The notes beneath the pieces were generated by a model. That model made no database searches and was not told where the DNA came from. It saw only the letters and a program-made list of their open reading frames with translations. From the NCBI GenBank assembly GCA_047601445.1, contig JASGJH010000001.1:3616001-3680000 (forward strand): a DNA stretch of 64,000 nt, read 5' to 3'. The DNA comes from Myxococcales bacterium. Lineage in GTDB: Bacteria > Myxococcota_A > Polyangia > Polyangiales > DASUME01. This document shows, one piece after another, positions 8,980 through 23,152 of this stretch; positions within the stretch are counted from its first letter, which is position 1; each line of letters starts with the position of its first letter. The translations under genes and the position numbers were made by a program.

Positions 8980-9042
8980 CTTTGCGCGGATGCCCGCCTT
9001 TATCGTATCGTGAGCCCGTTTCGACCCCCGAAGCGAGGCCCC

Positions 9043-10467
9043 GTGGACATCACTCCGCACATCGACCGCCCCCCCGCATCTGCCGCGAACGCTGGCGTCA
9101 CCACGGATCCCGCCGCGCTTCGCCGTATCATCTTCGCCGCCTCGCTCGGCACGTTGTTCGAGTGGTACGACTTCTATCTCTACGGCAGTCTGGCGACCTT
9201 CTTCGGGAGTCTGTTCTTCCCCGAGGGCAACGAGACGGCGCAGCTATTGGCGAGCCTGGCGACTTTCGGAGCCGGCTTCGGCGTACGTCCGCTCGGGGCG
9301 CTCGTGTTCGGACACATCGGCGATCGCGTGGGCCGCAAATACACCTTCATGGTGACCATGGCGCTGATGGGCTTCAGCACCGCGGCGATCGGACTCTTGC
9401 CCACCTACGCCACGCTCGGCTTGGGGGCCACCACCCTGCTCGTACTGCTGCGCTTGCTGCAGGGCCTTGCGCTCGGAGGTGAATACGGCGGTGCCGCCAC
9501 CTACGTCGCGGAGCACGTGCCGGATCACCAGCGCGGCTACTACACGAGCTTCATCCAAACCACGGCGACGCTGGGATTCTTGGTGAGCCTGGGCGTCATC
9601 GGCTGCTCCCGTGGCGTGCTCGGTGAGGAGCAGTTCCGCGCCTTCGGCTGGCGCATCCCGTTCCTGCTCTCCTTCGTGCTGCTCGCGGTCTCACTCTACA
9701 TCCGCGTGCGCATGCAGGAGTCACCGCTGTTCGCCAAGCTGCGCACCGAGAAGCGCGTGGTGGTGAATCCGCTCAAGGAGAGCTTCACCAACCCGCTCAA
9801 CCTCAAGTACGTACTGATCGCGCTGTTCGGTGTCACCGCGGGCCAGGGCGTGGTGTGGTACACGGGCCAGTTCTATGCGCTGACCTTCCTGCAGAGCGCG
9901 CTCAAGGTGGGTTGGCAGAGCGCCTATCTCATGATGGGCGTGGCATTGGGCCTGGCCACCCCGCTCTACGTGTTCTTCGGTTGGCTGTCCGACCGCGTGG
10001 GGCGCAAGAAGATCATGCTGCTCGGCATGGCGCTGGCTGCCCTGACCTACGTGCCCTTGTTCGTGGCCCTCCGCCAAGTGGCCACCCCGAGCAGCGCAGG
10101 AGCCTCTCTCTCCAACGCAAGCCTCGCGCTAGGAACGCTGATTCTGCTCGCCATGATGATCTACGGCTGCATGGTGTACGGCCCCATCGCGGCGTTCTTG
10201 GTGGAGCTCTTCCCCACGCAGATCCGCTACACCTCCATGTCCTTGCCTTACCACCTGGGCAACGGCTGGTTCGGCGGCTTTCTCCCGCTGATCGCCACCG
10301 CGGTGACCGCGTCCGATTGGGCCAAGCAGACCTTCGGAGAACACGCCATCTATACAGGCCTCGGCTATCCTATCGCCGTATGCGTGCTCAGCCTGGTGAT
10401 CGGAGGGCTGCTCGTGAGGGAGACCAAGGATCATCAGATCGATGCGGATGTGCATCTGGGCGGGTAG
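9043..10467 (+). CDS. MFS transporter, metabolite:H+ symporter (MHS) family
   Basis: GTLFEWYDFYLY, GDRVGRK, LQGLALGGEYGG, ELFPTQIRY. Confidence 0.92.
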   Translation: MDITPHIDRPPASAANAGVTTDPAALRRIIFAASLGTLFEWYDFYLYGSLATFFGSLFFPEGNETAQLLASLATFGAGFGVRPLGALVFGHIGDRVGRKYTFMVTMALMGFSTAAIGLLPTYATLGLGATTLLVLLRLLQGLALGGEYGGAATYVAEHVPDHQRGYYTSFIQTTATLGFLVSLGVIGCSRGVLGEEQFRAFGWRIPFLLSFVLLAVSLYIRVRMQESPLFAKLRTEKRVVVNPLKESFTNPLNLKYVLIALFGVTAGQGVVWYTGQFYALTFLQSALKVGWQSAYLMMGVALGLATPLYVFFGWLSDRVGRKKIMLLGMALAALTYVPLFVALRQVATPSSAGASLSNASLALGTLILLAMMIYGCMVYGPIAAFLVELFPTQIRYTSMSLPYHLGNGWFGGFLPLIATAVTASDWAKQTFGEHAIYTGLGYPIAVCVLSLVIGGLLVRETKDHQIDADVHLGG

Positions 10468-10854: not shown

Positions 10855-10902
10855 ATTGCACGTTCGGCCTTGCGCTTGGCCGAGACGGTGCACACTTGGG
10901 GG

Positions 10903-12522
10903 ATGGATGAAAGCCGAGATGCTGGGACTCGCGGGCGAGCAGGACAGAACCGCTTGAATCGAAGAATGTTCGTGCAGAACACGGCCTGCGCCGCCGGTGC
11001 TGCGTTCCTCGCGCAATGCTGGGGCGAGCCCGCAGCGGCGGATGCTCCGCCCCTCCCCCTCGGACCCGCCGAGCCCTTCGACTTCGCGGAACTCGTGAAG
11101 AAGGCGGCGGTCCGAGCCAGTGCCCCCTACGTGCCCGCGCCCAAGCCAGCGCCCGAGATCATGGCGCAGATGATCTACGACCAGCACGAGGCCATCCACT
11201 ACCGCCCTGATCGCGCGCTGTTCGCCGATTCGCCCTACCCGGTGTTTTTCCGCCACCTCGGCAAGCTTTTCCCGAGCACCGTGAAGATGTACGCCCTCGA
11301 TGGCGGCCAGGCGCGCGAGGTGCTCTACGACCCGTCGCTCTTCACCATGCCCAAGGACTCGGTCGCGAAGAAGCTGCCCAAGGACGCCGGCTTCGCTGGC
11401 CTCTCATTCCAGACGGCAGGCAAGTTCGACCCGGTGGACAAGGGCTGGCTGTGCTTCCTTGGAGCATCGTATTTCCGCGGCGTCGGAGAGAACACCGAGA
11501 TGGGCATCTCGGCGCGCGCGGTGGCCGTAAACACGGCGCCTCCCGGCAAGGAAGAGTTCCCCGGCTACGTGGCGTTCTACATCGCTGGCGCCAAGGGCGA
11601 AGGCGACCCCGTGGTGGTGCACGCGCTGCTCGACTCACCGAGCATCTCGGGAGCCTATCGCTTCACCTGTCACCGCAAGAACGGCGTCACCATGGAGGTG
11701 GAGTGCCGCCTCTTCTTGCGCGAGGACATCGACAAGCTCGGCATCGCTCCGCTGACCTCGATGTTCTGGTACGCCGAGTACGGTCGCGGCAATCACATCG
11801 ACTGGCGCCCCGAAGTTCACGACTCCGACGGTCTCCTGCTGTGGACCGGCTCGGGCAAGCGCATCTTTCGCGCGCTCGAGAACTACAAGGAGTTCACCAT
11901 CTCCACGTTCCCTGACAAGAACCCCAAGGGCTTCGGGTTGACCCAGCGCGACCGCGACCAGAACCACTTCCTCGATCCGGTGTACTACGAGCGCCGGCCG
12001 AGCCTGTGGATCGAGCCCATCGGCAACTGGGGCAGCGGCCACGTGGAGCTGGTGGAGATCCCCACCGTCGACGAGTACCACGACAACCTGGTGAGCTACT
12101 GGGTGCCCGCGGCGCCGAGCAAGAAGGGCGCGAAGTTCGAGTTCAACTACCGCATGCACTGGCGCAACGACGAGCCCTACCCGCCGTCCGATCTGGCGCG
12201 CGTGCGAGAGACCTATATCGGTCGTGGCGGCGAGCCAGCCACCCCCGATCCCGTGGGCATCACCAAGTTCGTGGTGGAGTTCCAGGGCAAGCCGCTCGAC
12301 GCTGTGGCCGATCCGAAGCAAGTCGTGGCCAAGCTCAAGACCTCGCTCGGGGAAATCGTTTCTCAGAAGATGCAGCGCGTGCCCAACACCACGCGCTACC
12401 AGATCCACTTCGACGTCAAACCCGGCAAGCCCGGTGTGGCCGAGCTCGAAGCGACGCTGTTCGTGGGCCAAAAGCCGGTCACCGAGACCTGGCGCTATCG
12501 TTTCGTCACAGGGAAAACATGA
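10903..12522 (+). CDS. opgD: Periplasmic glucan protein OpgD/MdoD-like, Tat-exported
   Basis: NRRMFVQ twin-arginine signal; FLGASYFR, EEFP, LGIAPLTSMFWY, RPEVHDSDGL, YERRPSLWIEP, DEYHDN. Confidence 0.85.
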   Translation: MDESRDAGTRGRAGQNRLNRRMFVQNTACAAGAAFLAQCWGEPAAADAPPLPLGPAEPFDFAELVKKAAVRASAPYVPAPKPAPEIMAQMIYDQHEAIHYRPDRALFADSPYPVFFRHLGKLFPSTVKMYALDGGQAREVLYDPSLFTMPKDSVAKKLPKDAGFAGLSFQTAGKFDPVDKGWLCFLGASYFRGVGENTEMGISARAVAVNTAPPGKEEFPGYVAFYIAGAKGEGDPVVVHALLDSPSISGAYRFTCHRKNGVTMEVECRLFLREDIDKLGIAPLTSMFWYAEYGRGNHIDWRPEVHDSDGLLLWTGSGKRIFRALENYKEFTISTFPDKNPKGFGLTQRDRDQNHFLDPVYYERRPSLWIEPIGNWGSGHVELVEIPTVDEYHDNLVSYWVPAAPSKKGAKFEFNYRMHWRNDEPYPPSDLARVRETYIGRGGEPATPDPVGITKFVVEFQGKPLDAVADPKQVVAKLKTSLGEIVSQKMQRVPNTTRYQIHFDVKPGKPGVAELEATLFVGQKPVTETWRYRFVTGKT

Positions 12523-14141
12523 GAAGTAGTCATTCGAAGCCCCGCGCTCTGCCGGCGCTGCTCGCCTGCGGCGCATTGCTCGCCGGTTGCAACGGCGCGC
12601 CCCCGAGCCGCCCCAAGTCCCAGGTCGATCATCCCGTGCAGACCAAGCCCGATGCCGGAGCGCAAGCGGTGGTCACCCGCGACAGCTTCACGCCGCCCGA
12701 GCAATTCGCACTGATGGTGGACCGCGCGCGCGAAGAGAGCCGCCACGTGGGCAAGCCCCTCAAGCGCATGGAGCTCCCGCCTTCCCTGCAGAACCTGGAC
12801 TACGAGAAGTACATCACCATCCGCTATCGGCCGGAGAAGAGCCTGTGGCGTAACGAGCCGGGTCACTTCGAGGTGCAGTTCTTCCACGTGGGTTTGCACT
12901 ACTACGAGCCGCTCAAGATGGAGGTGCTCGAGCACGACAAGCTCTCGCTGATCCCGTTCAACCCCGAGTTGTTCTCCTACGACGGCGTGACCCCGCCGCC
13001 CGCCGACGCCGAGCTCGGCTTCGCCGGCTTCCGCATCCACGCGAACCTCAATCGCGCCGACTATCGCGACGAGTTCATCGTATTCCAGGGCGCGAGCTAC
13101 TACCGCACTGTGGCCAAGGGACAGATTTACGGCTTGTCCGGCCGCGGCCTGGCCATCGACACGGGCGAGCCCGGCCCCGAAGAGTTCCCGCGCTTCACGG
13201 AGTTCGTGCTGGTTCGCCCGCAGGCCAACGACACGTTCATGTGGGTGCTGGCGTTCCTGGAGAGCCCGCGCGTCACCGGGGCCTATGCCTTCCGCATCCA
13301 GCCTGGCGATGAGACGCAAATCGAGGTCACCGCGCGCGTTTTCCCACGCAGTCCCATCAAGGTGCTCGGTGTGGCGCCCCTCACCAGCATGTTCCTGTAC
13401 GGAGAAGAGTCGCCGCCCAATCGCTTCGGCGGAGATCATCCGAACCTCAAGCGTCCCGAGGCACACGACTCCGACAGCTTGGTCAGCTGGAGCGGCCAGG
13501 GCGAATGGTTGGTGCGCCCTCTGCGCAACCCGCCGAAGACCCAGGTCTCCACGTTTCGCCTGGATTCTCCGCGCGGCTTCGGCTTGATCCAGCGCGACCG
13601 CAGACCCGAGAGCTACAACGACCCGGAGTACGCCTACGAGCGCCGTCCGAGCGCCTGGATCGAGCCCCTCGACAACTGGGGCCCGGGTTCACTGCGCTTG
13701 CTCGAGATCGGCACTCAGCTCGAGAGCGACGACAACATCGGCGCCATGTGGGTGCCTGACGCGATCGCACCCGAGGCCGATGGCCTGAACCTGCACTACC
13801 GCGTGCACATCGGCATGGGCCTACCCACGGGGCTCGGGCCGGCTTCCCAGGCGCTCGACACGCGCTTCAAAGATCTCGGCGGCGGGCGCACGCGCTTCGA
13901 GGTGGAGTTCGCGGGGGCGGCCCTCACGGATGCCAATCCCCAGCACCCACTCGAGGCCATCGTGAGCGCCCATGGCGGCAAGATCACCTCCCAGCGCGTC
14001 GACCAGGACGCCAGCAACGGGCGCGCGAAACTCACCTTCGAGGTGAAGCGCGACGGCGCGGGCGCCGTGGATTTGCGCGCGTTCTTGCGCTCGGGTCCCG
14101 ACGCGTCGAGCGAGACGTGGGTCTATCTGCTGAGCGACTGA
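12519..14141 (+). CDS. opgG: Periplasmic glucan protein OpgG/MdoG-like, predicted lipoprotein
   Basis: ATGA overlap; LLAGC lipobox; FQGASYYR, YGLSGRGLAIDT, EEFPRF, APLTSMF, PRGFGLIQR, YERRPSAWIEP. Confidence 0.85.
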   Translation: MRSSHSKPRALPALLACGALLAGCNGAPPSRPKSQVDHPVQTKPDAGAQAVVTRDSFTPPEQFALMVDRAREESRHVGKPLKRMELPPSLQNLDYEKYITIRYRPEKSLWRNEPGHFEVQFFHVGLHYYEPLKMEVLEHDKLSLIPFNPELFSYDGVTPPPADAELGFAGFRIHANLNRADYRDEFIVFQGASYYRTVAKGQIYGLSGRGLAIDTGEPGPEEFPRFTEFVLVRPQANDTFMWVLAFLESPRVTGAYAFRIQPGDETQIEVTARVFPRSPIKVLGVAPLTSMFLYGEESPPNRFGGDHPNLKRPEAHDSDSLVSWSGQGEWLVRPLRNPPKTQVSTFRLDSPRGFGLIQRDRRPESYNDPEYAYERRPSAWIEPLDNWGPGSLRLLEIGTQLESDDNIGAMWVPDAIAPEADGLNLHYRVHIGMGLPTGLGPASQALDTRFKDLGGGRTRFEVEFAGAALTDANPQHPLEAIVSAHGGKITSQRVDQDASNGRAKLTFEVKRDGAGAVDLRAFLRSGPDASSETWVYLLSD

Positions 14142-14260: not shown

Positions 14261-15379
14261 CTAGGCGTACTCGTTCACCCACCGATCGATCTCGATGCGC
14301 GCCATCACGAGGTTGGTCTCGTCGGGGTCGAAGAGCAGCAAGGCAAAGCAACGCGGCCGCTTGGGCAAGGGCTTGATCAGCTCGCAGCACGACTGCGTGG
14401 AGACGACTAGCTCCATGAGCTCGGCATCTGCCTGGGAAGCTGCGAGCGTGACGTACTCCTGGCGCAACACGCTGGCAGCGCTCTCTGCCCACTGGCTCAT
14501 GTCGATGGGCGGCTTGGATTCGCAGGCGAGGGTTAGTCCGGTCTCCGCGTCCACCAGGGCCAGCCCCAGGGAGCCGGGGAACAAGGTCATGGTCTTGGGC
14601 AAGCGCGCCAGGAAGCTCGGCAGACGTGGCACCGGCGGCAGCTCCGACTTGAGCGGCACCAACGACTCCTGCAGGCGCTTGAACGACATCTCCTCGCCAT
14701 CGAACTCCACCGGCACGTTGCGTCCTGCCTCGTCGCGATACTGCAGCGCCGACATCAACACATGACTGATCGGTCTGTGGATGGTGCGCTCGGGTGCGAA
14801 GCAGCCATGCTCCACATACACGTCGCCGGTCAGCCAGCCGATGATGACGTAGGCCGCGGTGTCGGCGGTCAAGCCGTCGAAGCGAGCTTCGAGGAGCTCC
14901 CCGCGCATCACGAACATGGTTCCGGTGCGACCTGCACTCTCGATCCGTAGGCTGCAGGTCTTGCGCTCGATCTCGAGCAGCTGCAGGAACGCGGGAATGT
15001 TCATGTTGTGCAACGAGCCGTAACAGGTCTCCGCCAAGCCGCTGGTGAGCTGCACCAGCATATCGGTGGCATCGAACGGCTCGACCATACATGCGATCAC
15101 GCCGAGGCGCGCGGCGCGCTGCCTGAGCTCGGGAGTGTCCTCCGGCAGCAGCACGAAGCGCCCCAACCGCGGCTGCTCCTTCTGGAGCCACTCGAGCAGC
15201 CTCCAGGCTTCGGCCAGCTGGACGTCCACGAAGGCCGCCTCGAAGGGCTTGCTCTTGAGCTCCTCCATGGCCCGCCCGTGGCTGTTCACGAGGACCGTCT
15301 CGAAGTCCATGTGAAAGGCAGAAAGGACCTGCGTAAGGACGCCTCCCTTGCCTGGCTCGATCGTTAGAATTCGGATCAC
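14261..15379 (-). CDS. Atypical receiver + DUF4388/PATAN + C-terminal roadblock-like domain protein
   Basis: N-terminal REC-like fold (AAFVDVQL; EPF instead of KPF); YGSLHNMNIPAFLQLLEIERKTCSLRI..GTMFVMRGEL..A (DUF4388); C-terminus LGLALVDAETGLTL..LIKPL..LLLFDPDETNLVMARI. Confidence 0.8.
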   Translation of the reverse strand: MIRILTIEPGKGGVLTQVLSAFHMDFETVLVNSHGRAMEELKSKPFEAAFVDVQLAEAWRLLEWLQKEQPRLGRFVLLPEDTPELRQRAARLGVIACMVEPFDATDMLVQLTSGLAETCYGSLHNMNIPAFLQLLEIERKTCSLRIESAGRTGTMFVMRGELLEARFDGLTADTAAYVIIGWLTGDVYVEHGCFAPERTIHRPISHVLMSALQYRDEAGRNVPVEFDGEEMSFKRLQESLVPLKSELPPVPRLPSFLARLPKTMTLFPGSLGLALVDAETGLTLACESKPPIDMSQWAESAASVLRQEYVTLAASQADAELMELVVSTQSCCELIKPLPKRPRCFALLLFDPDETNLVMARIEIDRWVNEYA

Positions 15380-16239
15380 GACCGCACCTGCGCGTTGGTT
15401 GAGGAGTCATGCGTGCGCGCGCGCTTGGCGAGCTGGCTCAGCAAGAGCGTGGAGGCCGGACGACTCGAACAGACAGCTGCGTAACTGACGCGACTGTCGC
15501 GCCAGGTCACGATGGCAGTGTTGCTGCACCAGGTGGCCGAAGCCACCGACGTGCCCGGCTCGAAGAACGTGGTGACGTCGAACAACCGGGTCGACCAACT
15601 GCCGATCTCCAGGGCCTCGGCCACGCGCAACTCACAGGCAGGGTCCACCGCCAGGACCATCGGAATGCCGAGCTGCTCGTGCCGCGAGAAGGCAAAGCCC
15701 GTGGCACCCGCGACCAACGTCTGCTGTAGCCGCTCGTGCGCGGAGGCGGCAACCTCGGGCTGTTGGCTTGCTGCCACGGAAGCCAGAAGCTCCACCGCCT
15801 GGAACACGAAGCGGGCGTCATAGCCGGTCTTGGTATGCGGCAAGAACCCCGTGGGGCGACGTCGAGCCCGCGCGATGCGCCCTACCGCTTCGCCGGTATG
15901 GGCCGAAAGCGCTCGACGCAGTTGCCCCTCCGACAGCAGACCACTCGAGACCAGCGCCTCCCCGATGGGTTTGCCGCCCTCCTTGCACTGGCGGAACAAG
16001 TCTTCCATCGCGGTGCGCGGCAGCGGAGGGTTCTTTTGCTGGCACAGGATGTCCGTGAGTCGCTTGTGCATGTTGGCAGCGACGGCCCAGCAGATGCGCC
16101 GGTTCTGCAGCAGGATCACGCCGTCGTCGCCGAACGACAGCACGCCAGTGGCGGTCGCCGGCATGCTCTCGATGTGCTCGAGCAGCTCCACGGCGGCAGG
16201 GAGCGTTGCGATCTCGGCTTGAGCAAGCTCGACGGACAT
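15376..16239 (-). CDS. PATAN/DUF4388-like protein with MshEN-like helical motif
   Basis: ATGVLSFGDDGVILLQNRRICWA; KPIGEALVSSGLLSEGQLRRAL; GTGA overlap with the next gene. Confidence 0.6.
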   Translation of the reverse strand: MSVELAQAEIATLPAAVELLEHIESMPATATGVLSFGDDGVILLQNRRICWAVAANMHKRLTDILCQQKNPPLPRTAMEDLFRQCKEGGKPIGEALVSSGLLSEGQLRRALSAHTGEAVGRIARARRRPTGFLPHTKTGYDARFVFQAVELLASVAASQQPEVAASAHERLQQTLVAGATGFAFSRHEQLGIPMVLAVDPACELRVAEALEIGSWSTRLFDVTTFFEPGTSVASATWCSNTAIVTWRDSRVSYAAVCSSRPASTLLLSQLAKRARTHDSSTNAQVRS

Positions 16240-16243
16240 CAGC

Positions 16244-16648
16244 TCAAGCCCTCCCGCTTGGATCACGCGCCGATCCGCGTGCCCCTGCCAGCTCGAGCAT
16301 GCGTCGGCGCACGCCCGAGAGCACCAGCCCGACATTGGGAACGCCCGAGGCGATGGCCACCAAAGCGACGTCTTGCTCGTTGGGCAATCGCTCCATCACG
16401 CGCACGGAGCCAGCCGACACCAGCACGATCTCCCGAAACTCCTTGCCCCCTTCGCTCCCGAAGCGCGCGAACAAAGCTGCCCAATCGGCACTCTGCGCCA
16501 CGCCGAACAACTCCGGGGACGCATTGGCCGTGTCGGAGAGGGTCGATACAGGGCTGCCATCGTCCGCCAGCACGCGCAGCACGATACCCGTGCGCAGGCA
16601 CACCAGCGCGAAAGCGATCTCTTCCACCTGCTGCTCGCTCGTATTCAT
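16244..16648 (-). CDS. Roadblock/MglB-like small protein (divergent)
   Basis: 134 aa; FALVCLRTGIVL..FREIVLVS..LVAIASGVPNVGLVLSGVR resembles the roadblock alpha/beta pattern. Confidence 0.55.
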   Translation of the reverse strand: MNTSEQQVEEIAFALVCLRTGIVLRVLADDGSPVSTLSDTANASPELFGVAQSADWAALFARFGSEGGKEFREIVLVSAGSVRVMERLPNEQDVALVAIASGVPNVGLVLSGVRRRMLELAGARGSARDPSGRA

Positions 16649-17319
16649 GAGCTCGGCCCCCCGCGCGGCGGCTTGCTGCGCGGGGCGTGCAAGGTCGCCC
16701 AGTCGCGCTGCTCGCGCTCTTCGATGCGTTGCAACAGCTCCAGCATCAGCGTGTGGAAGGGCCGATGGATGGTGCGCGGCACGTCGCGCGTTGGAATGCG
16801 GGAAAGACGTGCATGCCCCGCCGCCAGCACTTCGGCCAAGGCTCCCTCCCCTTGCATGTCGCCCAGTTGGGCGTGAATCAGCTCACCAGCCTCGAGGTAG
16901 AGCTCGGCGTCGCCCACCACGAAGCCCACGCTCTGGGCCTCCGTGTGAGCGCGCCGCAGGACATCCACGAGCAGCATCGGCTCCGAACCGAGCGAGCCCA
17001 ATGTCTCGCGCAAGGTGGTGAGGAGCTGCGCGCTGGTGAAGGGCTTGCGCAGCAGGAGGCCCCGGCCGAACAAGCGATGGCGCCCCTCGTGCTCCATGAA
17101 CGAGGTCGTCAAGATGAGCGGGAGCTTGGCAAAGGCCGTGAGGTCCGCCGGATCGAGCGAGTCCGAGTCGAGCACGGCCACGTCGAACCCGTGCGCTTCG
17201 ACCTCCGCTCTCGCGACCTCGATGCACTGGGAGCCCACCACGTCCACACCGTAGTGGCGCAGCGTCCGGCTCACCGCGGCGATCAAGCGGGTGTCGAGAT
17301 CGAGCATCAAGAGCCTCAT
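16645..17319 (-). CDS. Response regulator with DUF4388-like output domain
   Basis: MRLLMLDLD..FDVAVLD..LILTTS..LRKPF; then AELYLEAGELIHAQLGDMQGEGALAEVL..RTIHRP; ATGA overlaps on both sides. Confidence 0.8.
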   Translation of the reverse strand: MRLLMLDLDTRLIAAVSRTLRHYGVDVVGSQCIEVARAEVEAHGFDVAVLDSDSLDPADLTAFAKLPLILTTSFMEHEGRHRLFGRGLLLRKPFTSAQLLTTLRETLGSLGSEPMLLVDVLRRAHTEAQSVGFVVGDAELYLEAGELIHAQLGDMQGEGALAEVLAAGHARLSRIPTRDVPRTIHRPFHTLMLELLQRIEEREQRDWATLHAPRSKPPRGGPSS

Positions 17320-18335
17320 CGGGGACCGTCCGAGCGCGGCAAGAACACGGCGAAGGCACTCCCGCGCGGGTCCGCCTCCAGTAGCAGGCGTCCGCCCTGA
17401 TTTTCGGCAGCTGCACGAGCCTCGGCCAGCGCGATCTGACTCGAAAGCAACTCGCGGGGAGCCGTGGCCTCGAGCAGCCCGTCCCAGGCGCGCGACGAGA
17501 GGGCCGGCCCGTCGTCGCACACGCGGAGGTACAGGTGTGACCCGGGATGACTCGAAGAGAGGCTCGAACTGATGGTGACCTGACATGGCACCGCCGCGCG
17601 CTCCGCCGAGTGGAGCAGCAGGTTGACGAAGATCTGCTCGATCACGATGGGATTGCCGCGCACCCAGGCCGACTCGGGGTGCAGTTCGATGCGCACCCGA
17701 TGTAGACCGTCGCGGTAGAGCGAGTTGAGCAGACTTTGCGCCCGGTTCACCACCTCGAACAACGACACCGGCACCGAGATTGGCGGTCCCAGACGCGCAT
17801 AGTCGAGCAGACCATCCAACGTGAGCTGCAACCGGCGACTCGCATCGCAGATGTCCTTCACCGTCTCGCGCAGGCTCTCGTACACCATGCTGCGGCCGCT
17901 CGAGTCGAGGAAGTCTGCGCTATAGACGATGCTGGCGACCGAGCTGCGGAGCTCGTGGGCCACGCTGGCCACGAGTCGGTGGGTAGACTCGAGGCGCGGT
18001 TGGTGCGCCGGCAGAGCGGACACGGGATGGCCTGCAATCTCCCGCAGCAAGAGCATGTATCCGCCGCCCTCGACCGCGTAGCGCGTGCACCCGAGGTGAC
18101 TCTGCGCCTCCCGCTCCGGGCTCCACGCGACGTAGTCTCCGGTAGCCGTCTGCTCGAGCAAACGCCAGAGCTCTCCCGGCAGCTGCAGGGGCTCGTGATC
18201 ACCGAGCACGCGCGCGAGGAGCGCCAGCGCGGGCGGCGTCGCAGACTGTAGGGAGCCGTCGCCCGAGCAGAAGGCCACCGGTGCCGGCATGCCCTCCGAG
18301 AGCAGCAGACACCGTGCGCACTCTGAACGCGTCAT
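17316..18335 (-). CDS. Cytoplasmic sensor histidine kinase with degenerate ATPase domain
   Basis: H-box VAHELRSS; IEQIFVNLLLHS; VCDDGP; no GxGLGL G2 box; start uncertain (18290-18377). Confidence 0.75.
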   Translation of the reverse strand: MTRSECARCLLLSEGMPAPVAFCSGDGSLQSATPPALALLARVLGDHEPLQLPGELWRLLEQTATGDYVAWSPEREAQSHLGCTRYAVEGGGYMLLLREIAGHPVSALPAHQPRLESTHRLVASVAHELRSSVASIVYSADFLDSSGRSMVYESLRETVKDICDASRRLQLTLDGLLDYARLGPPISVPVSLFEVVNRAQSLLNSLYRDGLHRVRIELHPESAWVRGNPIVIEQIFVNLLLHSAERAAVPCQVTISSSLSSSHPGSHLYLRVCDDGPALSSRAWDGLLEATAPRELLSSQIALAEARAAAENQGGRLLLEADPRGSAFAVFLPRSDGPR

Positions 18336-18499
18336 CGCCTGGGTCGAGTCCACCGAACGCCAACTTGCAAGCGACAAGCCACGCTCGCGTCGTGTTGTCT
18401 CGCGCGCTCCTCACGCACCGTTCTGCGCGTCTGCGCCGGCGAACGCGTGAGCTCTTCCTTCTAGCGCGCCACCGCAGGCCCGCCGTGGAGCCCGCCGCA

Positions 18500-18552
18500 G
18501 TCGGAATCCGCCATGGCGGGCCCTGCCGTCCGGCGTGTCGCATTCCGCCATG
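18500..18552 (+). promoter_or_regulatory. Direct repeat pair, candidate upstream activator (enhancer) sites
   Basis: GTCGGAATCCGCCATG (18500-18515) and GTCGCATTCCGCCATG (18537-18552), 14/16 identical, upstream of a sigma54 site. Confidence 0.45.
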
Positions 18553-18622
18553 TACGAAAGTCTAATCTCGTGTGTTTAGCGCGATATTCACGGGTTTTTG
18601 CAAGATCGCCACGCTGCACATT

Positions 18623-18639
18623 TTGGCCTCACGCTTGCA
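18623..18639 (+). promoter_or_regulatory. sigma54 (-24/-12) promoter
   Basis: TTGGCCTCACGCTTGCA: GG-N10-GC with TGGC and TTGCA, ~95 bp before the roadblock gene. Confidence 0.7.
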
Positions 18640-18734
18640 TTGACTGGCGTTCGCAAAGGCTAGACGGCGTATCCGCATCGGTTGCGGTGACGAGCGAGCT
18701 GGCATCCAACGAGTCGGATCGATACGGAGGCACT

Positions 18735-19097
18735 GTGGCAAACATCAAGGAATCCCTCACTAGGATCATGCAGCTCGACGGTGCTGTAGGTTGCTGCATC
18801 GTGGACAGCAACAGCGGCATGATGCTCGGCGCGGACGGCGGCGGGAGCATGAACCTCGAGGTCGCGGCAGCTGGCAACACCGAGGTGGTGCGCGCCAAGC
18901 GTAAGACGATGCGCTCCTTGAACCTCAAGGACAACATCGAGGACATCCTCATCACGCTCCACAATCAGTATCACCTGATCCGCCCGCTCACGTCGAACGA
19001 CGCGCTCTTCATCTACCTCGTGCTCGACAAGCAGAAGGGCAACCTCGCCATGTCGCGCCACCAGTTGGGAGCCATCGAACGCGACCTGTCCGTCTGA
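18735..19097 (+). CDS. Roadblock/LC7 (MglB-like) protein
   Basis: RBS GGAGG + GTG; LDGAVGCCIVDSNSGMMLG..VAAAGNTEVVRAK..IEDILITL..YHLIRPL..FIYLVLDK..NLAM. Confidence 0.85.
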   Translation: MANIKESLTRIMQLDGAVGCCIVDSNSGMMLGADGGGSMNLEVAAAGNTEVVRAKRKTMRSLNLKDNIEDILITLHNQYHLIRPLTSNDALFIYLVLDKQKGNLAMSRHQLGAIERDLSV

Positions 19098-19128
19098 ACC
19101 AATCTTCGACCTCGAAAGGATCAAACTC

Positions 19129-19497
19129 ATGCCCAGCGAAAAGCAGCTCTCCGAAGTTCTCGAACGGATTCAAGGCGACGCCAACGGCTTCATCGCAGCC
19201 TCCCTGGTGGATCTGGACTCGGGTATGACCCTGGCGGTCAAGTCCCTGCGTTCGGACTTCGACCTCACGGCGGCCAGCGCCTACAACAGCGAGCTCGTGA
19301 AGCAGAAGCTCAAGATCATGCGCACCCTGGGGCTCACGGGCGGCATCGAGGACATGCTCATCTCGCTCACCGATCAGATCCACTTGGTGAAGCTGGTGGG
19401 TCCGAACACCTTCCTCTACCTCGCCGTGGACAAGAAGCAGAGCAACATCGCCATCGTACGCACGGCGGTGAACAAGCACGTTTCTGCTCTCGGCTGA
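19129..19497 (+). CDS. Roadblock/LC7 (MglB-like) protein, paralogue
   Basis: GFIAASLVDLDSGMTL..ASAYNSELVKQK..IEDMLISLTDQIHLVKLV..FLYLAVDK..NIAIVR. Confidence 0.85.
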   Translation: MPSEKQLSEVLERIQGDANGFIAASLVDLDSGMTLAVKSLRSDFDLTAASAYNSELVKQKLKIMRTLGLTGGIEDMLISLTDQIHLVKLVGPNTFLYLAVDKKQSNIAIVRTAVNKHVSALG

Positions 19498-19595
19498 AGC
19501 GCGCCGCGCAGCGTGACCCGCCGCTCTCGGCCGCTTTTCCGGGGGGGAAGAGTATGCCGAGGGCGGCGCAGGCTTTTAACCGCCCAGGAACGGAT

Positions 19596-21096
19596 ATGCC
19601 CACGATCGACCCTGCCAAAGGTGTGCTCGTCATTCGCGTCGTCTACGACGGCCCCGCGCTGTCCGGAAAGACCACGAGCTTGCGGGCACTGGCCAAGGGC
19701 GTGTCGCGTGACGTGGAGTGTCCAGGTGAGAAGGACGGGCGCACCCTGTACTTCGATTGGGTCGACTACGTGGGCGGCATCTTCGAGGGTCGACAAATCC
19801 GCTGCCAGATCGTGAGTGTCCCCGGTCAAAAGCAGCTAGCCAAGCGCCGCAAGTTCTTGCTAGAGAGCGCCGATGCGGTGGTATGCGTGCTCGATACGCG
19901 CGCTGGGGAGATCGAGTTCGGCCTCAATTGGCTCTCGGATCTGACCACCAGCTGCCGCAAGAAGAGTCCTCCGGTGGGGATCGTGCTCCAGGCCAACAAG
20001 CGCGACGCCATCGACGCCGTGCCGCGCGAGGAGCTGAGGACGCGCATCAACAAGGTGGCGCCCATCGCCATCGTGGAATCCGTGGCCCGCGCTTCGGACG
20101 GCATCCGCGAGGCCTTCGTGCTGGCAGTGCGCCTCGCGCTCGATCGCGTCCGCGCGCTCTCGGCCGAAGGGCGCCTGGAGAGCAGTACGTCCTACGATGA
20201 GCGTGCCCAGGATCTGCTGACCAAGCTGGAGCAGGCCGAGTCGGTGGCCGACGTCGCGCTGCCCGAGCAGGCCGCCTACGGAGAGCCCATCCCGCCCCTC
20301 ACCGAGGTCACGCCCCTCGCAGTACGCGGCCCGGGCAGCGCGGAGGACGAGCCGCTCGAGGTCGGCGAGGAACGCGTGTTCGTCCCGGATCCGATGATGC
20401 CAGGTGGGATGATTTGGCCGCCCGTCGACGGGCGCACGTTGCTCTACGAAGTGGCGGGGCTAGGCATTCGCCCGGCGCGCACGCCGCGCGGGGAATGGTG
20501 GGGTTCAGGCTCGGGCTGGCGCTTTCACTCCCAGGCCAACGCGATTCTATCGAGATCACAACCGGGCGCGCGCCGAGCTCATCGACCGCGCGCGACTACA
20601 CGCCGCCAATGCCGCCCACATCTCTCCGGGACGCGCCGTGATCCTGGCCGACGCTGGCTCCGGCAGGCTCCGGCTGTGGCAGCTGGTCCGCGTGGAGCCC
20701 GTGTTACGCGAGCGGTTGGCCGGAGCGATGGCGGCCCCCGATGCCCGAAGCGTGGCGCTCGGCTTCCTCGATGTGGCCCTGCAACTACTCACGGCGCGCG
20801 AGTGGTTCAGCAAGGGGGCCATCCAGCTGCCCTGTACGCTCTGGACGGTCGGCTCCGACCGTCCCAATCGGCCCACCTTCGTCGGGCTGATGCCGGACGG
20901 CCACTCGCCCACCTTGCCCGAGGTCGGCCCCGCGGCGCTGCTGCGACGGGAGCTCACGCCGCACCTGCGGGAGCTGCGGCGCTCGCGCGTGGACTACGCC
21001 GAGGTCTTCGCCGAAGTGGCGGCGCAAGCTTCCATCACGCGCGCCCAGGAGGACCCGGCGCGGCTCCTTGGAGCGGTCGTGCTCGAGTTCGACTAG
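19596..21096 (+). CDS. MglA-family small GTPase with long C-terminal extension (apparent +1 frameshift at ~20545)
   Basis: VVYDGPALSGKTT (G1), GRTLYFD, SVPGQ, QANKRD (G4). Deleting one T in GATTC 20543-20547 joins the 20638..21096 frame, giving ~499 aa. Confidence 0.85.
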
Positions 21097-21105
21097 AGCC
21101 GTCGC

Positions 21106-22527
21106 TCAGCGCAGTCCGTAGCGGCGCAGTCGATCGCGCAGGGTGGTGCGCGGCAGCCCGAGTACGCGCGCCGCAGCGCTCAAGTTGTGCCCGGAGGACT
21201 CCCAGGTTTCCTGAATGGTGCGGCGTTCGAGATCACGCAGCGGCTCGAGTCGGACGCCACTCTGAGTCGGTGAGCTGAACTGAGCCACCTGCACCTGGGC
21301 CGTCTTGCTCTCCGCGATGGGCTCTCGACTCTCCGCGAGCGCGGTATGACTCGGACGTTCCTGGCGATCCTTCAGCGCAGCCATCAGCTCTGCCACGCCC
21401 ACTCGCCCACCGGCCGACAACACGGCCGCCTGCTGCACCACCGCGCGCAGCTCGCGCACGTTGCCAGGCCACGCATAGGCGTGGAGCGCTTCGATGGCGC
21501 GCGGCGAAAAGTCGACCTCCACCCCATAGCGCTCCGCGAAGTCTCCCAGGAAGTGACGCGCCAGCATGTCGATGTCTTCGGAGCGGTCGCGCAGGGGCGG
21601 CGTGGTGATGGTGAAGCCGGCCAGGCGATAGTAGAGATCACTGCGTAGGCTGGAGGCCGTCCCGATCAAGTTGCGGTGCGTCGCACTGATCACGCGCGCC
21701 CGAAACGGGATGTCGCGCGAGCTGCCCACGCGCCGAAAACTGCGGGTCTCCAGGGCGCGCAGCAACTTGGGCTGCAGTGAACTCGGTAGCTCGCCGATCT
21801 CGTCGAGGAACAAGGTGCCAGAACCGGCGCTCTCGAAGAGGCCCGGGCGGCTGCCGCGCGCGCCGGTGAAGGAGCCTGCTTCGTGGCCGAACAACTCGCT
21901 CTCGAACAGGGACTCGGGGATAGCCGCGCAGTTCACGGGCACGAAGGGGCCGTCGGTCTCGCTCGTGCTGTGCACCGCCTGCGCCACCAACTCCTTGCCG
22001 GTGCCCGTCTCACCCAGGATGAGCACGGGTAGATCGCGATAGCGAGCCACGGTCCGCACCTGCTCGCGCACGGCCCGGATGGCTGGCGCCTCGCCCTTGA
22101 TGAGGTTCGAGAGCGCGGACCCGGAGGCGCGTGGCAGCTCGATCGCAGCAGGTCGCTTCCCCTCGACGACCGCGCGCAGGCGCTGGTCGAGGGTGGCCGC
22201 GCTGATCGGCTTCTCGAGCACGTCCTGAGCGCCGGCGCGCACCGCCTTGACCGCCGACGCCACGTCGAGATGAGCGGACATCAAGACCAGTGCCGACGGA
22301 ACGTTGCGCGCACTCAAGCGCTCGATCAACGACAGGCCGTCCATACCTGGCATCTGCAGGTCGACCACGATGGCTTCGCTGGGCTCGGCTTGGATGGCCT
22401 GCAACGCTTCGTCGCCGCTCCCCGCGACACGCACCGTCCAACCGCGCATCGACAACTCGCGAGCGAGCGAACGCGCGTGGAGAAGGTCGTCGTCTACAAG
22501 CAGTACGGCAGAAGACCGAGCGTGCAT
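21106..22527 (-). CDS. sigma54-dependent response regulator (NtrC family; REC-AAA+-Fis HTH)
   Basis: [65 protein letters not shown]. Confidence 0.93.
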
Positions 22528-22834
22528 TGAAGTGTCCTTGGGGGGGCCCACAACACAACTGCACTCCTCGCACGCGAAGTCCGCTCGCCCGCGGTTCGCT
22601 GCGAAACTAGCCCCGAAAAACTCTAGCCCAAACGCGCCATGCGCTTCAACTTGTAAGTACGCCCAGCCTCGGCGCACAACAAGTCGTGGGTACGCGGCGC
22701 ACCGCACTCACTTCGCACTCGGTCGAAGTACGCCCTCGGACGCGCGAGCAAAAAGTCCGGCGAGTGCATCACCGCAAGTGCGTGGATAGTTCCGAATGGG
22801 AACGCTACGCGTCACGACGCGCGCTCCCACGCGT

Positions 22835-23152
22835 TCACGACGCGCGGTTGAACTTGTGTTGCTTGACGGACTCGACGGGACCTTCGAGCGCCTGCAGCGC
22901 GGCCGTGTCGATGCAGCTGCCCGTGAACTCGAACTCCAGATCGTGGATGGTGTTGCCACGTTGGAGTGTGAGCGTCATGCGGTTCTTGGAGAGATTGCGC
23001 GCAGCAACGTAGGAATCCATGTCGCTCATCAGGACGCCGTTAACGATCAACAAGCGATCGCCCACGCGCACACCGGCCTTCTCGGCCGGGGACCCTGGAA
23101 AGAGAACGAGGACAGGAATTCCTTCGACTTGCGTTGCGGACACGGCTACCAC
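22835..23152 (-). CDS. Stand-alone PDZ domain protein
   Basis: GIPVLVLFPGSPAEKAGVRVGDRLLIVNG..MTLTLQRG. Confidence 0.75.
   Translation of the reverse strand: MVAVSATQVEGIPVLVLFPGSPAEKAGVRVGDRLLIVNGVLMSDMDSYVAARNLSKNRMTLTLQRGNTIHDLEFEFTGSCIDTAALQALEGPVESVKQHKFNRAS

Follow-up and report, generated by a model that had tools for sequence, protein, structure and literature searches.

To our knowledge, the characterized Ras-like GTPases of bacteria are single-domain proteins. Roco proteins, the LRRK2 family, combine a Ras-like G domain with a kinase-fold domain on a single polypeptide and have a Roc-COR tandem, usually together with leucine-rich repeats (LRRs). Here, we analyze a signaling cassette of a Myxococcales bacterium (assembly GCA_047601445.1) built around an MglA-type GTPase, g8, that is fused to a likely pseudokinase domain. 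The cassette occupies positions 14261 to 23152 of the window, the 64,000-nt stretch of contig JASGJH010000001.1 that we analyzed. The nearest described relative is the MglA/MglB system of Myxococcus xanthus and Thermus thermophilus, with RomY, MglC, and RomR/RomX. Heteromeric GTPase-activating protein (GAP) complexes of this system are described in the accessible part of PMC9481161, and this and the accessible part of PMC13408092 describe heteromeric or dual-function roadblock regulators in M. xanthus. In the accessible text of the MglA-family survey (PMC4316618), group-1 MglA proteins are marked by an Arg in G2 that acts as an intrinsic arginine finger and by xVPGQ. That survey left out proteins longer than 240 amino acids (aa), and a family of fusions of ~500 aa therefore fell outside it. 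PATAN proteins receive a mere mention in the accessible portion of PMC11580455.

The cassette resembles the MglA/MglB system in its G domain, arginine finger, xVPGQ motif, and roadblock-type and PATAN neighbors. It differs in the ~500-aa kinase-like fusion, a separate branch of the GTPase tree, roadblock proteins that score below Pfam Robl_LC7, a patchy distribution, and the addition of a dedicated histidine kinase (HK), sigma-54 activator, promoters, and PDZ protein. Actinobacterial conservons (AGPS; CvnA-D) likewise place an HK-like protein, a roadblock protein, and a small GTPase in one locus. As far as the accessible parts of PMC4316618 and bioRxiv 10.1101/2025.07.03.663114 describe them, conservons have a GTPase with group-2 motifs (no G2 Arg, GTPGQ, NxFD, DAR) and lack a response regulator, whereas the cassette has a group-1 GTPase, three receiver-containing genes, and a sigma-54 activator. 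The cassette HK is soluble, the pseudokinase fusion sets the GTPase apart, and no CvnC-type family was seen among the ten proteins, all of which agrees with the original prediction that the locus is distinct from conservons.

The cassette GTPase is fused to a likely pseudokinase domain

The original prediction listed g8 as an MglA-like GTPase. Its G domain is indeed of the MglA type, but the real form of the protein is a two-domain fusion of ~500 aa that is split in this genome by a frameshift; both the fusion, which is the defining feature of the cassette, and the frameshift had been overlooked. Intact orthologues are single open reading frames (ORFs) of ~500 aa, and all 120 homologues compared (120/120) need two frames to align over the break near 20545. 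Identity to the closest homologue is similar on both sides (78% before the break, 80% after), as would fit either an error of assembly or a lesion of very recent date. A programmed frameshift was rejected, as the homologues are single ORFs.

Both in sequence (3t12, E 1e-38) and in fold (5ymx, Z 21.7, root-mean-square deviation [rmsd] 2.7, 190 residues aligned), MglA is the nearest match of the G domain. Among 102 full-length representatives, G1 and the G2 Arg-Thr pair were found in all 102, PGQ in 101, and NKxD in 97; R49-T50 was unchanged in 31/31 aligned sequences, and g8 of the window reads SVPGQ at G3 and NKRD at G4. According to the accessible part of PMC6785124, the catalytic and MglB-binding elements of MglA are Arg53, Thr54, Asp58, Gln82, and the beta2 strand, and these four residues align to the invariant R49, T50, D54, and Q78 of g8. 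Where at least 200 residues precede the kinase-like domain, a G domain is there in 104 of 107 representatives. At ~500 aa and two domains, the g8 family lies outside the group-1 length range (single domain, 150-240 aa). In the GTPase tree, the fused G domains group apart from canonical MglA (Shimodaira-Hasegawa support [SH] 99, FastTree). The predicted distinction from canonical mglBA holds, and this genome has canonical mglBA at a separate locus near C1:1048659-1049701. One unfused protein falls within the fused branch. Among the loci compared (L numbers), L025 has at 8992-10089 a GTPase of this branch that is short and unfused and adjoins an RB1 gene. In one sub-type (L062:5804-7483, L093, L095, and L098), the cluster includes a second G-domain gene, which is divergent; RB1 in this sub-type is a fusion with REC-PATAN, and the PDZ gene comes after it.

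We modeled the C-terminal domain from the intact orthologue L036. Folded alone, it reached a predicted local distance difference test score (pLDDT) of 95.7 and a predicted template modeling score (pTM) of 0.89. In the full-length model, whose G domain filled the fold searches made with it, a low-confidence linker of 37 residues joins the G domain to the kinase-like domain, with nothing else. Among the matches listed by Foldseek, 49/49 were kinase-fold by title (best E 0.008, none at E 0.001). Among those listed by a wide structural search (VIA), 40/50 were kinases or pseudokinases by title, with 140-210 residues and thus most of the domain aligned, Z 5.5-6.8, and rmsd ~5 (best overall Z 7.4, none at Z 8); eight others were partial helical matches and two were unclear. 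The 40 include a few proteins, such as EssB, PAN3, and ILK, that are known kinase-like proteins. The nearest named clusters in Atlas were RIO1, ABC1, and Pkinase, at 0.88-0.89. With catalytic positions assigned by sequence register, 3 of 152 aligned domains had the beta3 Lys, 5 had the catalytic Asp, 9 had the DFG Asp, and a single one had both Asp residues. Conservation was 85-100% for a GxxWPPxxGR motif and for several Trp, Arg, and His residues. These findings, together with the predicted structure, suggest that the C-terminal domain is likely a minimal pseudokinase with a kinase-like fold that lacks the catalytic residues.

The domain family comprises 790 clusters or representatives at 50% identity (E 0.001), or 643 at 1e-10; a plasmid search with the domain gave no informative match. 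Some family members contain two kinase-like domains (L022:596-2827, L094:8282-11284, and P0262). Since P0262 retains both catalytic Asp positions and the beta3 Lys, a rare active kinase may exist within the family.

In comparison with Roco proteins, the g8 model has no LRR or COR, its G domain is MglA-type rather than Roc-type, and its kinase fold is minimal and without catalytic residues. The bacterial pseudokinase families in the accessible part of bioRxiv 10.1101/2025.01.12.632604 likewise lack the VAIK-Lys, HRD-Asp, and DFG-Asp, and Staphylococcus EssB (4ann) aligned with the g8 domain at Z 6.6 and rmsd 3.7 over 139 residues. Unlike those families, the g8 domain is beyond detection by Pfam Pkinase. 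The word "GTPase" is absent from the main text of that kinase atlas.

Back-to-back sigma-54-type promoters flank paired palindromes between the operons

We compared 22 intergenic regions between the HK and RB1 genes, leaving L021 out of the promoter counts as a duplicate. Both -24/-12 promoters (Table 1) were present in 21/22 regions, against a dinucleotide-shuffle mean of 0.3 and maximum of 2, and the strict pattern has a genome background of 0.009 per 260 nt. Paired palindromes of the form TG[GT]C[CG]-N5-[CG]G[ACT]CA lay between the promoters in 18/22 regions (shuffle mean 0.2), the motif having been derived from the same 22-region alignment in which it was counted. When the window and L036 were left out of the matrix, the cassette locus still came first of 1991 genomic sigma-54-like sites (28.2; next 20.3). 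Promoter plus paired sites also scored 27-34 in the rearranged loci L063, L071, and L076, none of which had been used for the matrix, and 1 of 100 random windows scored at least 20. Sigma-70 promoters were also looked for, and none was found.

The activator g9 is intact in its receiver Asp/Thr/Lys, Walker A and B motifs, arginine fingers, and HTH_8 domain; its loop reads GSFTGA, and rpoN is present in this genome. Since back-to-back sigma-54 promoters face the two operons and flank the paired palindromes, g9 probably drives both operons. The sigma-54 linkage that had been proposed is thus supported by DNA sites, although these indicate an input that expresses the cassette and not a downstream output. 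As in NtrC/NtrB-type systems, a REC-AAA+-HTH_8 activator goes with -24/-12 promoters and paired palindromic enhancer-like sites. The cassette differs from them in that its own operons are the best-scoring genomic targets and its cognate kinase has repeatedly lost catalytic motifs. A wider regulon was considered and rejected, as no second site in the genome scored close to the cassette locus. In one clade (L029-L046, L051), the GAFTGA loop of the activator reads GAFTSA or GAFTNA.

Gene content of the cassette is conserved while its order varies

All ten contiguous signaling genes that had been predicted are present (Table 1). The left operon was described as packed mostly by ATGA/GTGA overlaps; three of its four junctions do overlap by 4 nt (ATGA, ATGA, GTGA), and the remaining one is a 4-nt gap.

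Table 1. Features of the cassette and its control region (window positions).
Feature	Position	Strand	Basis or remark
g1, REC-DUF4388(PATAN)-roadblock, 372 aa	14261..15379	-	Pfam, hhalign; receiver pocket degenerate here
g2, PATAN-like + degenerate MshEN-like helical motif + further C-terminal domain	15376..16239	-	Pfam, NCBIfam
g3 (RB3), divergent roadblock-type, 134 aa	16244..16648	-	hhalign to RB1
g4, REC-DUF4388, 224 aa, lineage-specific addition	16645..17319	-	Pfam DUF4388 E 0.008
g5, soluble HisKA-HATPase protein	17316..18335	-	Pfam; alternative in-frame GTG start at 18353
sigma-54 type -24/-12 promoter toward left operon	18367..18381	-	21/22 regions; shuffle mean 3.6, max 10
Palindromic enhancer-like site 1 (candidate activator site)	18499..18513	.	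paired sites in 18/22 regions
Palindromic enhancer-like site 2 (candidate)	18536..18550	.	paired sites in 18/22 regions
sigma-54 type -24/-12 promoter toward RB1-RB2-GTPase	18624..18638	+	22/22 regions; shuffle mean 2.3, max 5
g6 (RB1), roadblock-type, 120 aa, GTG start	18735..19097	+	weak LAMTOR5 and 7f8m matches
g7 (RB2), roadblock-type, 122 aa	19129..19497	+	RB1 paralogue
g8, MglA-type GTPase (~residues 1-190) + linker + protein-kinase-like pseudo-enzyme domain (likely)	19596..21096	+	frame broken near 20545
g9, REC-AAA+-HTH_8 sigma-54 activator	21106..22527	-	Pfam full NtrC-type set, motifs intact
g10, stand-alone PDZ protein	22835..23152	-	Pfam PDZ_6 E 5e-10

We assessed conservation of the neighborhood in two sets of loci. 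Set A consists of 32 loci found via the GTPase in one-genome-per-species contigs, 22 of which are at least 13 kb long. Set B consists of 39 loci from a search of 401 class genomes, with a match to the C-terminal domain as the sole criterion; they were drawn from 40 of 80 listed matches with long contigs favored and L065 left out as a duplicate. A six-gene core of fused GTPase, RB1, RB2, orthologous HK, PATAN protein, and activator was held by 17/22 long set-A loci, in which we also counted g2 in 17, RB3 in 18, PDZ in 12, and g4 in 2. Across all 32 set-A loci, RB3 occurred in 23, PDZ in 18, and g4 in 2. The 39 set-B loci contained the fusion in 37, any roadblock in 33, RB1 in 27, PATAN in 24, g2 in 22, RB2 in 19, the activator in 15, the orthologous HK in 12, the full core in 9, and PDZ in 8. 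Between loci, content stays while gene order and orientation vary. The PDZ gene is accessory and changes place from locus to locus, and g4, which had been counted as a member of the cassette, lies outside the conserved set (2/32 set-A loci). The highest Kyte-Doolittle 19-mer mean among the cassette proteins was 1.81 and none reached 1.9, so that the proteins are apparently soluble, without a membrane-like segment. Conservation and hydropathy thus bear out the proposal of a self-contained, apparently cytoplasmic module.

The C-terminal domain was present in only 52/401 class genomes and 4/301 phylum genomes, and the distribution of the cassette is therefore patchy. Carriers have several copies per genome and genome sizes of 5.6-13.2 Mb, and GTPase-bearing loci are labeled Myxococcota, Acidobacteriota, and Gammaproteobacteria. 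In distant variants, a fusion of an ABC-type ATPase and a dual-specificity phosphatase lies beside the GTPase, at L022:2728-4095, L023:3852-5351, L058:9633-10985, and L063:11046-12479 and in L077, L091, L094, L096, and L102; it was found in 5/39 set-B loci, mostly in variants with RB3/RB4-type roadblocks, and is absent from the type in the window. To the left of the cassette (10870-14141) are two tandem MdoG/OpgG-type periplasmic glucan genes, which are not kept beside it in relatives.

The small proteins form one roadblock-type group

The roadblock identity that had been assigned to the small proteins held in part: they score below Pfam Robl_LC7 but share profile homology with one another and weakly match solved roadblocks. 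By hhalign, RB3 matched RB1 at 94.5% (E 8e-8) and the g1 C terminus matched RB1 at 97.8%. RB1 weakly matches 7f8m (E 0.009) and LAMTOR5, the RB2 profile weakly matches MglC (7ct3, E 0.018), and many RB2 relatives carry the JGI name Roadblock/LC7/MglB family. These profile comparisons suggest that RB1, RB2, RB3, and the g1 C terminus constitute one roadblock-type group. RB1 is 73-87% identical across close loci, RB2 is ~39% identical to RB1, and both genes adjoin g8. In six distant loci (L024, L062, L077, L093, L095, and L098), RB1 is fused behind REC-PATAN, and this fusion links receivers to roadblocks.

Two orphan RB1 paralogues are found elsewhere in this genome, at G000:C1:7304119-7304481 (L026:8120-8482; 86% identical) and G000:C1:8340276-8340638 (L027:8277-8639; 75%). 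Each has a sigma-54-type promoter 95-117 nt upstream without paired palindromes, and the L026 orphan is divergent from a receiver-less sigma-54 activator. A hydrophobic-X-hydrophobic end, considered as a PDZ ligand at the RB1 C terminus, was present in 29/34 RB1-type proteins but equally in PDZ-less loci, leaving PDZ binding as a weak lead.

The PATAN assignment of g1 comes from Pfam DUF4388 (E 4e-12), accompanied by a weak REC match (E 0.013). For g2, Pfam DUF4388 was weak (E 0.005), NCBIfam NF053729 (E 9e-6) was below its cut-off, and a PatA_N match in Atlas (0.79) is a lead only. The g2 C terminus was considered as a further roadblock and rejected, having no profile match to RB1, RB2, or g1. 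Residues ~85-112 of g2 resemble the MshEN cyclic di-GMP motif, with a score under the cut-off of that family. The Arg and Gln positions that are key to the motif are changed, and cyclic di-GMP binding by g2 appears doubtful.

The histidine kinase and a receiver have lost catalytic motifs

Pfam identified HisKA and a weak HATPase domain in g5. The protein keeps His127, but His replaces Asn in its N box, and the F and G2 boxes are lost. L036 likewise has no N-box Asn and no F and G2 boxes. Among set-A orthologues (n=24), 11 keep His and Asn, 10 lack the His (a clade of nine plus L041), and L050 lacks the Asn. In set B (n=12), His and G2 are seen in 10 orthologues; of the other two, one appears degenerate and one was unparsed. 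Because set-B orthologues mostly show His and G2 and the set-A losses differ, ancestral g5 was probably active, with catalysis lost several times since. The degenerate ATPase domain of g5 is identical to that of L036 at 97/154 residues (63%), compared to 45% in the N terminus, which argues for a retained role. A PAS domain was matched by Pfam in 0/24 orthologues.

In the g1 receiver of the window, only the Asp is kept, without the acidic pair, Thr/Ser, or Lys; Asp, Thr/Ser, and Lys are intact in 15/20 orthologues. By these motif criteria, the proposal of a working two-component system fails for this genome, as g5 and g1 are not predicted to act as a normal autokinase/receiver pair. Phosphate for g9 in this lineage would have to come from another kinase, and g5 may be a non-autophosphorylating scaffold or relay.

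Discussion

The cassette is real and conserved, and it seems to be undescribed in print. We looked for a match to an already characterized system and found none, and no description was found in the open literature, most subscription papers being outside the scope of that search. The cassette is a variant of the MglA/roadblock kind that is neither a single-domain group-1 MglA, a conservon, nor a Roco protein.

We consider it somewhat more probable than not that the cassette is an inducible G-protein switch. Phosphorylated g9 would bind the two palindromes and drive both sigma-54 promoters, so that the whole cassette would be expressed together, with a positive loop where the kinase is intact. 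The G domain of g8, which has the residues for MglA group-1 chemistry, would hydrolyze GTP with an RB1/RB2 roadblock dimer as its MglB-like GAP. Receiver-PATAN-roadblock proteins, as the fusions suggest, would couple phosphorylation state to the available roadblock dimer. The fused pseudokinase, whose fold is supported by the structural matches, may then serve as an integral binding module that depends on nucleotide state and relays the signal to a target. More tentatively, and with less than even confidence, we propose a distinct class of G-protein signaling, which would be characterized by its own pseudokinase effector in the chain, receiver-PATAN-gated roadblock heterodimers, a self-reinforcing sigma-54 loop, and an HK turned non-catalytic scaffold in several lineages. 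As for the coupling of phosphorelay, GTPase, and sigma-54 in the original prediction, the sigma-54 sites support it, while physical coupling of GTPase, roadblocks, and receivers stays an inference.

Several observations weigh against a switch of this kind. Binding of the GTPase to roadblocks, like their GAP action, is a prediction. The loci are related, and their counts are not independent and are descriptive rather than a test. In L057 and L059, the GTPase is present without partner genes, and 6/39 set-B loci have no roadblock. RB1-like genes also occur without the GTPase, as the two orphan paralogues in this genome, and weaker RB2-profile matches without a pseudokinase match were found in 12/301 phylum genomes. 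No recurrent further or output gene was found across close loci, and the palindrome pair scored at least 20 in only 3/48 distant loci. The kinase-fold scores are modest (Foldseek E 0.008, Z 6.8 for a named kinase, rmsd ~5). Comparison by hhalign with the Ser/Thr kinases of the genome was not significant (E 0.04; controls 0.17-0.31) though the catalytic loop was in register, and the domain had no meaningful match among Pfam and PDB sequences.

Some of these points, and others, could be read differently. The cassette may be a paralogous cell-polarity or motility switch like MglA/MglB/RomR that is used under particular conditions, given its group-1 catalytic residues, the weak match of the RB2 profile to MglC, and PATAN proteins as known neighbors of group-1 and group-5 MglA in the accessible text of PMC4316618. 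We regard this as rather unlikely, since canonical mglBA sits at a separate locus, the fused G domains have their own branch, no motility gene family is recurrent among the neighbors, and the domain is confined to the few class and phylum genomes noted above. The g8 frameshift, lost g5 ATP boxes, and lost g1 receiver pocket would also be expected of a decaying relic, that is, a system real in relatives but non-working in this genome. Comparison of about ten other genes with loci of the same genus revealed no split frames, and the assembly is therefore not obviously error-rich. Nonetheless, g8 is no less similar to its closest homologue after the frameshift than before it, the degenerate g5 ATPase domain is common to L036, whose g8 is whole, and the promoters, palindromes, and g9 are intact, making decay an unlikely account.

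The roadblocks could instead form complexes of their own, with the GTPase merely co-regulated and not controlled by them. The orphan RB1 paralogues, each of which has a sigma-54-type promoter of its own, fit such an arrangement, as do L057 and L059, whose GTPase has no roadblocks. However, RB2 matches better than E 1e-50 were confined to 3/301 genomes, all with the pseudokinase domain, a roadblock is near the GTPase in 33/39 set-B loci, and the MglB-facing beta2 residues are conserved, so we give separate complexes little credence. The most improbable reading is that social bacteria with large genomes use the cassette in conflict or for stress-triggered decisions on cell fate, and that the GTPase sets the threshold, even with the patchy distribution, several copies in carriers of large genome size, and ABC-ATPase-phosphatase fusions in some variants. 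PADLOC matched none of the 8/8 cassette proteins tested, no variable effector gene was seen, and RB1 and RB2 are very conserved instead of fast-evolving.

An inducible G-protein switch of this composition would join GTPase switching, a pseudokinase, receivers, and sigma-54 control in a small set of soluble, purifiable proteins. The cassette would offer a second model of roadblock GAPs, this one outside polarity, and it would also offer a case of repeated kinase-to-pseudokinase change inside one system.

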